Shown piece after piece: positions 47,969 through 49,349 of a stretch of DNA of 64,000 bases. Under the pieces are notes generated by a model. That model saw only the letters and a list, made by a program, of their open reading frames with translations. It was not told where the DNA came from and ran no database searches. Location of the stretch: contig JALSIC010000052.1 in assembly GCA_026981935.1 (NCBI GenBank), forward strand, positions 2,571 through 66,570, given 5' to 3'. The first letter of the stretch is position 1. Each line of letters starts with the position of its first letter. The stretch comes from Gammaproteobacteria bacterium. GTDB lineage: Bacteria > Pseudomonadota > Gammaproteobacteria > SZUA-140. The position numbers and the translations under genes were made by a program.

Positions 47969-48000
47969 GGTCCCCGCCAGCGCCTCGGCCATAGTGCCTT

Positions 48001-48403
48001 GTCATTGCGGCCGAACCTCCCTCTCATTTCGACCTCACTCCCTTGTCATTTCGACCGCAGGGAGAAATCCTGTGCCGGTGACCCAAGATTCCTCGCTGCG
48101 CTCGGAATGACAAAAAAGGGGGAATGACAAAGAAGTGTCATTTCGCCCGCAGGGAGAAATCCTGTGCCGGTGACCCAAGATTCCTCGCTGCACTCGGAAT
48201 GACAAAAAAGATGGAAAGAATTGTCATTTCGACCGAAGGAAGAAATCCTGCCCACCGTCCCAGGATTCCTCGCTGCGCTCGGAATGACAAAAAAGATGGA
48301 AAGAATTGTCATTTCGACCGAAGGGAGAAATCCTGCCCACCGTCCCAGGATTCCTCGCTGCGCTCGGAATGACAGGGATACTGTCATTCCTCGCTGCGCT
48401 CGT
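48001..48403. repeat. Tandem array of REP/MITE-like palindromic elements: 4 full ~67-bp copies (48044-48110, 48136-48202, 48222-48289, 48308-48374) plus partial copies at each end, separated by near-identical 19-25-bp A-rich linkers
   Basis: Unit: GTCATTTCGACCG(A/C)AGGGAGAAATCCTG - 12 nt - (CC)AGGATTCCTCGCTGCGCTCGGAATGAC. The arms form an imperfect ~28-bp inverted repeat. Copies 1/2 are nearly identical to each other, as are copies 3/4; the linkers are AAAAAAGATGGAAAGAATT. Period 86-92 bp. Confidence 0.85.
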
Positions 48404-49349
48404 CAGTGTCCCCCGGGGCGCGATAGGCGCCCCGCACCTTCATGATCTCCTTGGGCCAGCGGCGCTTGGTGCATTGCCACTGTCCGGGACGGGCGCGGAT
48501 GAGGTCGGCGATGGCCCGGTTCATGGCGGCGGTGATTTCCTCGAGGCTCTTGTGCGCCTCCCCCGGGGCGTGGACGGCCGGGTGGATGACACTGCGAAAG
48601 CGCGCGTCTCCCAGGCGCTCGGTGTGCACGGGGACGATGGCGCAGTCGAATCTGCGCGCCAGCCAGGCGGGCAGCGGGGTGGTCGCGGCCGGCGCCCCGG
48701 CGAAGGGGACGGAGAGGCCGTCGTCGATGCGCACGTCCACGTGCAGGCCCACGGAGCGGCCCTGCTTCAGGCTGGCAATGAGGCGCCTCAGGGCGTTTTC
48801 CTTGGGGATGAGCGTTTGTCCCAGTGCCGTTCTCCGGGCCGCGACCAGCCGTTCCAGGCCGGGATTGACCTGCGGGTTGTAGACCAGGTCCACAGGATAA
48901 CCCAGGGAATGGATGGCATAGCCGGAGAGTTCCCAGTTGCCCAGGTGGGGCGCCACGAAGACACAGGGCCGTTTGCGGGCCAGGAAATCGGGATCCCGGT
49001 TTTCGCACACGACCTCCAGGGAGGCGAACTCACAGTCGGGATCGATGATGGCGGCGAAGTGGGGGAATTCCGCCAGCGAGGCGCCCAGGTTGCCCCAGAC
49101 GGCGCGGGCCAGGGCGGTGATTTCGGCTTCGTCCCTCTCCGGACACAGCATGCGCAGATTGGCCAGCACGTGGCGGTGCTTGCGGCTGCGGGGGCCGAGG
49201 GTTTCCAGCAGCCGGCGCCCGAAACGGGAGGCGCGCGCCGGGGACAGGCGGCCGGAAAGCCACCAGAAGGCCTTGAGCAGCATGACCTGTTGCCGCCACG
49301 ACCAGGGCGGGCGCGCCGGGGGGGCGTGTTGCCTGGTTTTCCCGTCCAC
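48384..49349 (-). CDS. Lipid A biosynthesis acyltransferase, LpxL/LpxM (HtrB/MsbB) family, paralog 1
   Basis: ...RHVLANLRMLCPERDEAEITALARAVWGNLGASLAEFPHF...CVFVAPHLGNWELSG...VDLVYNPQVNPGLERLV...[11 protein letters not shown]...[18 protein letters not shown] start at 49349, chosen by alignment with paralog 2; the track start at 49610 overlaps paralog 2. The last 5 codons and the stop lie in a REP-element arm. Confidence 0.8.
   Translation of the reverse strand: MDGKTRQHAPPARPPWSWRQQVMLLKAFWWLSGRLSPARASRFGRRLLETLGPRSRKHRHVLANLRMLCPERDEAEITALARAVWGNLGASLAEFPHFAAIIDPDCEFASLEVVCENRDPDFLARKRPCVFVAPHLGNWELSGYAIHSLGYPVDLVYNPQVNPGLERLVAARRTALGQTLIPKENALRRLIASLKQGRSVGLHVDVRIDDGLSVPFAGAPAATTPLPAWLARRFDCAIVPVHTERLGDARFRSVIHPAVHAPGEAHKSLEEITAAMNRAIADLIRARPGQWQCTKRRWPKEIMKVRGAYRAPGDTDERSEE

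Follow-up and report, generated by a model that had tools for sequence, protein, structure and literature searches.

Four inverted hairpin dimers between convergent genes of a gammaproteobacterial contig, probably of the CGTC-tagged REP and Ssn-related repeat kind

CGTC-tagged repetitive extragenic palindromes (REPs) carry a terminal unpaired tag (CGTC, TGTC or CCTC), a stem that starts with A-T and T-A pairs and a short tail, occur mostly as inverted dimers, often heterodimers, and come without a dedicated transposase; the Neisseria repeat dRS3 is their family CGTC-1 (Di Nocera, De Gregorio and Rocco, BMC Genomics 2013, PMC3733652). The oriented form of dRS3, termed NTS (CGTCATTCCCGCGMAVGCGGGAATCYRG), is bound, only as a single-stranded DNA (ssDNA) hairpin, by SsnA, a 94-aa single-domain GIY-YIG nuclease (cd10448) that cuts ssDNA a few nucleotides 5' of the tag; binding depends critically on the C that follows the palindrome, and cutting requires the GTC that precedes it (Chenal et al., Nat Commun 2025, PMC11893778). 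Homologues of ssn occur across phyla and are flanked by Ssn-related motifs (SRMs), 71% of them on one side and 42% on both, and in Neisseria the Ssn system lowers recombination of incoming ssDNA carrying the repeats (PMC11893778). The DNA analysed here, a stretch of 64,000 nucleotides from a Gammaproteobacteria bacterium (GenBank assembly GCA_026981935.1, contig JALSIC010000052.1, positions 2,571 to 66,570, GC content 63.7%; hereafter the window), contains a tandem array of palindromic elements whose family had not been recognised in an earlier reading made without database searches (the sequence-only reading). We found that the element is a G·A-bulged variant type within the known CGTC-REP/SRM kind. 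The array is probably a cluster of four inverted dimers of such repeats, each arm being a likely site of an Ssn-family nuclease and each dimer a gene-less miniature.

Anatomy of the array and its arms

Four inverted hairpin dimers, accompanied by partial copies, occupy the 415-bp gap between a convergent pair of algC-like and lpxL-like genes (48001-48402). When a single-arm covariance model was run over the whole window with filters off, exactly 12 arms were recovered (E 2.8e-06 to 0.0065; next match E = 1.3), with left arms starting on the + strand at 48045, 48137, 48223, 48308, 10950 and 43262 and right arms starting on the - strand at 48087, 48179, 48264, 48349, 10992 and 43304. Within the window, both arm patterns were confined to 48045-48373, 10950-11016 and 43262-43328, with 0 matches in 100 shuffles, in agreement with the sequence-only reading, which had placed a palindromic REP-like element at three intergenic loci. 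Its description of the array as four full copies plus partial ones was likewise borne out: Tandem Repeats Finder (TRF) reported a repeat at 48043-48374 with a period of 85, 3.8 copies and 90% matches, and a repeat search gave spacings of 92, 85 and 85 nt between the units. The two halves of a dimer form, as had been noticed, an imperfect inverted repeat of about 28 bp (24/28 positions complementary, read from the sequence), and on folding every dimer formed one long hairpin (DNA z-scores -2.7 to -5.5). The parts of the array between its first and last complete arms, and the partial arm that follows, are:

48045..48069, + strand: left arm of unit 1, GTCATTTCGACCGCAGGGAGAAATC (38.8 bits, E 2.8e-05), with the GTC tag at its 5' end and hence its functional reading on the + strand
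48087..48111, - strand: right arm of unit 1, GTCATTCCGAGCGCAGCGAGGAATC on the - strand (44.2 bits)
48112..48136: linker 1, A-rich on the + strand, holding a partial outer half, GGAATGAC, at 48121-48128
48137..48161, + strand: left arm of unit 2 (29.3 bits)
48179..48203, - strand: right arm of unit 2 (36.8 bits)
48204..48222: linker 2, AAAAAAGATGGAAAGAAT(T)
48223..48247, + strand: left arm of unit 3 (31.5 bits)
48264..48288, - strand: right arm of unit 3 (44.2 bits)
48289..48307: linker 3, identical to linker 2
48308..48332, + strand: left arm of unit 4 (39.5 bits)
48349..48373, - strand: right arm of unit 4 (44.2 bits)
48383..48402: chimeric partial arm, GTCATTCCTCGCTGCGCTCG (partial match of the covariance model at 48390-48402)

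Over the 68-nt dimer core, unit 1 is identical to unit 2 at 66/68 positions and unit 3 to unit 4 at 67/68, and the loops and linkers of the array are near-identical between units rather than diverse. The sequence-only reading had taken the near-identity of adjacent units as a sign of recent duplication, and the array does look like the product of it, having probably grown by local tandem duplication. An independently assembled metagenome contig (L120) holds the same four-unit array with 5 differences; the array is therefore real and not an assembly artefact, and two close strains agree in its number of copies. The regular spacing of a repeat of about 25-28 nt could recall a CRISPR-like array, an interpretation already dismissed in the sequence-only reading. 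We give it practically no weight: the orientation of the arms alternates, the would-be spacers (17 and 19-25 nt) are short and near-identical between units, unlike the unique spacers of about 26-72 nt between the direct repeats of a CRISPR, and two other loci each carry a single copy of the element.

Each arm is 25 nt long and reads, tag first, (T/C)GTC-ATYYC-GA-[xyGNAy'x']-GA-GRRAT-C. It thus folds into a 5-bp stem whose first pairs are A-T and T-A, followed by an internal loop of tandem G·A/A·G and by a mini-hairpin of the GNA type. Together these make nine stem positions per arm, two of them G·A/A·G, and a 3-nt loop; the predicted fold of a single arm is ...(((((..((...))..)))))., in dot-bracket form. 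The 7-nt core of the window arms reads CCGMAGG on the left and, with one exception (GTGCAGC), GCGCAGC on the right; all 12 arms have the tag TGTC, with one CGTC in L120, the stems run from AT... to ...AT throughout, and a C directly follows the palindrome in 12/12 cases.

Stem covariation and spread of the arm across phyla

The arm belongs to a dispersed family, as the sequence-only reading had expected. In a species-representative genome collection, more than 119 stretches among the matches listed contained the exact right-arm 25-mer. They represent at least 15 phylum-level lineages (judged by record title, among the matches listed), including Chloroflexota, Acidobacteriota, Gemmatimonadota, Bacteroidota, Planctomycetota, several Pseudomonadota classes, Bacillota, Patescibacteria and Verrucomicrobiota, and the isolates Luteimonas marina and Thermonema rossianum are among the carriers. 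Across 119 related loci (852 kb) we counted 268 strict arms, compared with 5 in shuffled sequence. Nearly all of the 268 have stems running from AT... to ...AT, 262 are directly followed by C, and GTC is preceded by T or C in nearly every dimer of the family. Adjacent arms are mostly arranged with their tags outward (86/126 pairs), and 80 of these 86 pairs are heterodimers, as in the window. The particular pairing seen in the window, a left core CCGNAGG with a right core GCGCAGC, recurs in metagenome-assembled genomes (MAGs) labelled as Gammaproteobacteria and Bacteroidales (L012, L033 and L044).

Stem sequences vary together with their partners, among them ATTCC/GGAAT, ATTTC/GAAAT, ATCCC/GGGAT and ATTCT/AGAAT. 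For an unbiased set, independent loci were used and sites were picked by their unpaired anchors alone (GTC-N5-GA-N7-GA-N5-C, n = 85). Fully complementary stems were present at 57 of these 85 sites, compared with a mean of 9.8 (maximum 21) after the 3' stems had been shuffled among sites. The inner 7-mer covaries as well, following xyGNAy'x' (GCGNAGC, ACGAAGT, CCGAAGG and GTGAAAC). Covariation of both stem and inner 7-mer argues that a small hairpin formed by one strand is under selection.

This within-arm covariation also bears on the idea that the dimers are MITEs (miniature transposable elements with inverted repeats) mobilised by a DDE transposase, for which the arms would be terminal inverted repeats. 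Such an origin would fit the short inverted ends of the element, its dispersal and its lack of genes. It is nevertheless highly improbable, since covariation within the arms shows that selection acts on the hairpin and not on a duplex end, 82 dimers showed no target-site duplications of 2-10 bp beyond a shifted control, and no transposase family recurs near the 119 loci. The label MITE-like given in the sequence-only reading therefore holds only loosely: the dimers do look like gene-less miniatures, in their case of the arm-ssn-arm cassettes described below, and they lack target-site duplications. All-vs-all clustering of the 3140 open reading frames (ORFs) of the 119 loci, which looked for a recurrent neighbour gene, returned only housekeeping families (short-chain dehydrogenase/reductase, histidine kinase and ABC ATPase), a test of little power because a single-copy partner will rarely lie beside a random copy of its repeat.

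A viral origin was rejected, as the 25-mer matched only 8 of 2.9 million viral contigs, and a blastn search of a plasmid collection with an idealised dimer gave no match. A gathering search of the window against Rfam was without a family match for the element, and E-value searches with the array and 8 related loci yielded only sub-threshold matches to generic miRNA-precursor hairpins. In two MAGs labelled Chloroflexi and Bacteroidales (L022 and L033), a second, G-rich motif, GGGAGAGGG..GGGGTGAGG, adjoins the arms. We take it to be another widespread intergenic repeat.

SsnA-like genes and stutter beside the arms

Among the 119 loci, which had been selected by motif, two contain an ORF with a GIY-YIG domain (PF01541), L095 and L082, and in both it lies among the arms. 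In Thermonema rossianum (L095), dimers at 2516-2612 and 3131-3218 lie on either side of the gene (2663-3028). The association was tested in the opposite direction on 80 metagenome loci chosen by their SsnA-like protein alone, in 79 of which the gene could be placed. A strict arm was present within 400 nt of the SsnA-like gene in 50/79 loci, on both sides in 31/79, and arm density was 2.39/kb near the gene, compared with 0.09/kb further away; in several of these loci the covariance model found further flanking arms that the strict search had missed. The nearest upstream arm was on the gene strand in 29/45 cases and the nearest downstream arm on the opposite strand in 25/39, often overlapping the stop codon. 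The gene thus lies between arms with their tags mostly outward, which is the geometry of the window dimers, so that the best reading of these is as miniature arm-ssn-arm cassettes that lack the gene.

A tblastn search of the plasmid collection with the L082 protein led to chromosomes of N. gonorrhoeae filed as plasmids. The two 2.17-Mb records (NZ_CP119140.1 and NZ_CP119142.1) are evidently whole chromosomes and gave an ssnA-type locus. The 94-aa gonococcal ORF (L210, 501-785) sits in a dense cluster of canonical NTS and shares 52% identity with the protein of L082 and 41% with that of L095. The homologue in Azospirillum lipoferum is flanked by hairpins of the CGTC-1 type. On another metagenome contig, L167 (Ga0209395_1000086), the arms that flank an SsnA-like gene of the same clade (about 54% identity to the L082 protein) are not of the G·A type; they are NTS-like (GTCATTCCTGCGAAAGCAGGAATC), their stems measuring 8 bp and their loops 4 nt. 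This suggests that the type of hairpin has switched inside a single protein clade, the G·A-type hairpin being a variant of the site that the SsnA family recognises.

These data bear on the partner that had been sought for the element, a tyrosine transposase of the REP-associated (RAYT) or IS200-like type. A classical REP mobilised by a RAYT (a Y1 HUH tyrosine transposase), as in bacterial interspersed mosaic elements (BIMEs) and REPINs, would account for an architecture that is the same in many respects: inverted dimers as long hairpins, tandem clusters like those of BIME-2 and a position between convergent genes. The tag is (T/C)GTC and not GT[AG]G, however, and neither the window nor L120 nor the 119 related loci yielded an ORF with HUH and Y-x-x-x-NP signatures in a motif regex search, although random REP loci rarely include the single-copy RAYT. 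Furthermore, CGTC repeats have no transposase beside them (PMC3733652), and the gene enriched beside the arms encodes a GIY-YIG nuclease. We consider a RAYT partner very unlikely. A specific candidate partner, an Ssn-type ssDNA nuclease, takes the place of the unrecognised REP/MITE label and redirects the search for a RAYT to a search for GIY-YIG genes.

A further feature was found on the tag side of the arms, where incomplete copies form a stutter of tandem 19-23-nt units, each consisting of about 10 nt of flank and the first 10-13 nt of an arm. Of 244 complete arms, 24 had such a stutter on the tag (5') side and 3 on the other side. It is seen at four related loci (L011, L014, L041 and L115), in the partial outer half at 48121-48128 within linker 1, and at all three loci of the window:

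48001..48038, + strand: two partial left-arm 5' halves (GTCATTGCGGCC.. and CTCATTTCGACC..) with a 22-nt period, upstream of the first complete arm (TRF 47997-48057, period 22)
11017..11073, - strand: degenerate outer halves (GAAATAAC, GAGATGAC and GGATGAC) with G-rich spacers of 10-12 nt (TRF 11036-11079, period 19)
43329..43387, - strand: three 20-nt units of flank and outer half of an arm (TCGAAATGAC) (TRF 43319-43387, period 20, 3.4 copies)

The last of these had been described as a triplication of the right arm alone. The tandem repeat is indeed present, and its 20-nt unit comprises only the outer 10 nt or so of the arm with about 10 nt of flank, not the whole arm. The stutter lies on the side where SsnA cuts in Neisseria. 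Canonical Neisseria NTS showed no asymmetry in a 50-kb sample (3 vs 3 of 19), and the stutter may therefore be specific to the G·A-type family, unless the sample was too small. A strand-specific stutter may be a clue to how CGTC REPs multiply.

Several observations weigh against the assignment to an Ssn system. By nearest-neighbour thermodynamics, single arms reach only -2 to -2.7 kcal/mol, no better than shuffles, so that the case for the small hairpin is built on covariation and not on predicted energy. Standard energy parameters do not capture sheared G·A pairs or GNA triloops. Many of the related loci are MAGs, and some taxon labels may therefore be wrong. The published SRM string, HGTCWYN(0-2)YYVSBRHN(0-5)WNVSBRGN(0-2)RNCYNB, has 0 matches in the window, whereas canonical NTS matches it, and near the 79 ssn-like genes it matches only twice, which places the G·A-bulged variant outside the operational definition of the Ssn paper. 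The string misses the window arms because the GA internal loop breaks the pattern, and it is a search tool rather than a biological definition. The Ssn repeat family accordingly contains a G·A-bulged variant which the published string misses and which is nearly invariant across many phyla. We infer that the gonococcal ORF is the orthologue of the published ssnA from its 94-aa length, its family and its NTS context rather than from an accession match. Finally, the 64-kb window contains no GIY-YIG or ssn ORF, so the repeats could be orphans here.

According to this last alternative, the array would consist of orphan or relic SRM/CGTC repeats in a genome without an active Ssn, changing only by replication slippage and recombination and affecting transcripts incidentally. 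Besides the absence of an ssn gene from the window, it can draw on the finding that 19% of the genomes with more than 200 SRMs have no ssn homologue (PMC11893778) and on the degeneration of several arms, which score only 26-31 bits with the model. It has to contend with three right arms identical to the pan-bacterial consensus (44.2 bits each), with the almost identical pairs 1 and 2 and 3 and 4, which point to recent activity, and with the mere 5 positions at which the strains represented by the window and L120 differ. On balance, we regard orphan repeats as rather unlikely.

The assignment that we favour, to CGTC-tagged REPs or SRMs with an Ssn-type partner, leads to a mechanism in which a small single-domain nuclease of the SsnA (GIY-YIG) family is predicted to recognise the arm. 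Where a region becomes single-stranded, the arm would fold, and the cognate Ssn would bind it and cut just 5' of the tag. Each dimer presents one predicted site per strand with the tags outward, and the predicted cuts of both strands in the array would thus fall in the A/T-rich linkers, 85 nt apart per strand, if cutting follows the example of SsnA (PMC11893778). A cognate Ssn would accordingly be expected to be encoded in this genome and to cut at this array. The local side effects of the array are a block of strong folding between the convergent genes and a stop codon that one partial arm provides for the lpxL-like gene.

An IS (insertion sequence)-like architecture has been remarked on by the Ssn authors themselves (PMC11893778). 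A bolder proposal, which we put forward tentatively and hold to be more doubtful than not, is that the G·A hairpin and the SsnA-like gene form an IS-like mobile unit with tags outward, whose gene-less dimers spread and amplify through ssDNA cutting by Ssn. The stutter would then be a footprint of cutting and repair, and the spread of the 25-mer would reflect horizontal transfer, many times over, of a single cassette. If true, arm-ssn-arm would constitute a transposon class driven by a GIY-YIG nuclease.

Genomic context and comparison with described systems

All three repeat loci of the window sit at the 3' ends of convergent genes, an association that the sequence-only reading had raised as a check. 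The two single dimers and the genes that flank the array are:

10950..11016: single dimer with its left arm at 10950-10975 (+) and its right arm at 10992-11016 (-), between sspB (+) and a gene for an FAD-linked oxidase (-)
43262..43328: single dimer with its left arm at 43262-43286 (+) and its right arm at 43304-43328 (-), adjoining the 3' end of a cytochrome b/c1 fusion remnant
46520..47968, + strand: phosphomannomutase/phosphoglucomutase gene (algC-like), with its 3' end towards the array and an uncertain start codon
48384..49283, - strand: gene of the lipid A biosynthesis acyltransferase family (lpxL-like), 299 aa according to the gene call on L120, with its 3' end within the last partial arm

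The chimeric partial arm at 48383-48402 has become part of the lpxL-like gene: the TCA at 48384-48386 is its TGA stop codon on the - strand, and its last six codons (DERSEE) derive from the arm. A paralogue of this gene at 49355-50284 stops about 12 residues sooner, with ...RSRGLY, where the lpxL-like gene reads ...RGAYRAPGDTDERSEE. A search with the lpxL paralogue matched only two metagenome contigs, neither with taxonomy, and the algC-like protein in the extent given by its ORF had no recorded match. For genome annotation, such arms are a source of spurious short ORFs, and they can rewrite the 3' ends of genes, as in the lpxL-like case. Directly beside the dimer at 43262-43328, an ORF on the - strand (43438-44067) fuses C-terminal pieces of cytochrome b and of cytochrome c1 (Pfam) and looks like a deletion remnant of a pet operon. 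Gene order (dfp-dut-algC...argB and sspAB) together with the GC content would suggest a gamma- or betaproteobacterium. The window contains further TRF repeats that are unrelated to the element (55649-55721, 14 nt x5.2; 38362-38412, 16 nt x3.2; 53160-53193, 7 nt x4.9; 51516-51555, 11 nt x3.6; 44841-44878, 9 nt x4.2), as well as two ordinary RNA genes, for RNase P RNA (class A, 332.7 bits, 16577-16937) and tRNA-Met (60023-60099).

The location at gene 3' ends is what would be expected of an element acting at the RNA level, as a bidirectional terminator, a stabiliser of mRNA 3' ends or a source of small RNAs. As RNA, the whole intergenic region folds far better than shuffles (-194.7 kcal/mol, z -7.9), and on the - strand each dimer is followed, at about 15 nt, by a run of T within the linker. 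These T runs do not abut the stem, however, a scan for intrinsic terminators found no pattern, and Rfam offered no match beyond the sub-threshold generic hairpin models. In addition, SsnA does not bind RNA of the same sequence as its ssDNA site (PMC11893778), and ssDNA recognition would fit the conserved tag and final C as well as the tandem G·A and the GNA triloop. An RNA-level function is therefore unlikely to be what defines the element, which may have such a role as a secondary effect.

Of the described systems, the SRMs, with NTS as their Neisseria form (PMC11893778), share with the window element the HGTC tag, an inverted repeat of 20-50 nt able to fold as a hairpin on one strand, the ATTCC.../...GGAAT ends of the palindrome and the C directly after it, as well as hundreds of intergenic copies that are often clustered and arms that flank small genes for single-domain GIY-YIG proteins of about 94 aa. 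They differ in the hairpin itself: the 8-bp stem of NTS is uninterrupted and its loop measures 4 nt, whereas the window arm has tandem G·A/A·G and a GNA triloop. The arm motif is not mentioned in the paper of Quentin 2018 or its supplements, and looking for its literal sequence in a collection of papers gave no relevant match.

The families CGTC-1 to CGTC-4 of the CGTC-tagged REPs resemble the window element in their CGTC/TGTC tag, their A-T and T-A first pairs, their tail beginning with C, their mostly inverted heterodimers with spacers of 20-100 bp or shorter, and their location downstream of genes with no adjacent transposase. They were described from 5 phyla, with stems of 8-9 bp, loops of 4-5 nt and only rare clusters (PMC3733652), whereas in the window element the stem has nine positions, two of them non-canonical pairs, the loop is 3 nt long, four units form a tandem cluster, and the taxonomic spread is far wider. 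The REP/BIME/REPIN-RAYT systems of E. coli and Pseudomonas, lastly, work in a broadly similar way: their ssDNA hairpins carry a tag, their dimers are inverted, their clusters are tandem mosaics, and the nuclease gene, present in single copy, lies between repeats of its own. They have a GT[AG]G tag and a Y1 HUH enzyme in place of HGTC and GIY-YIG.

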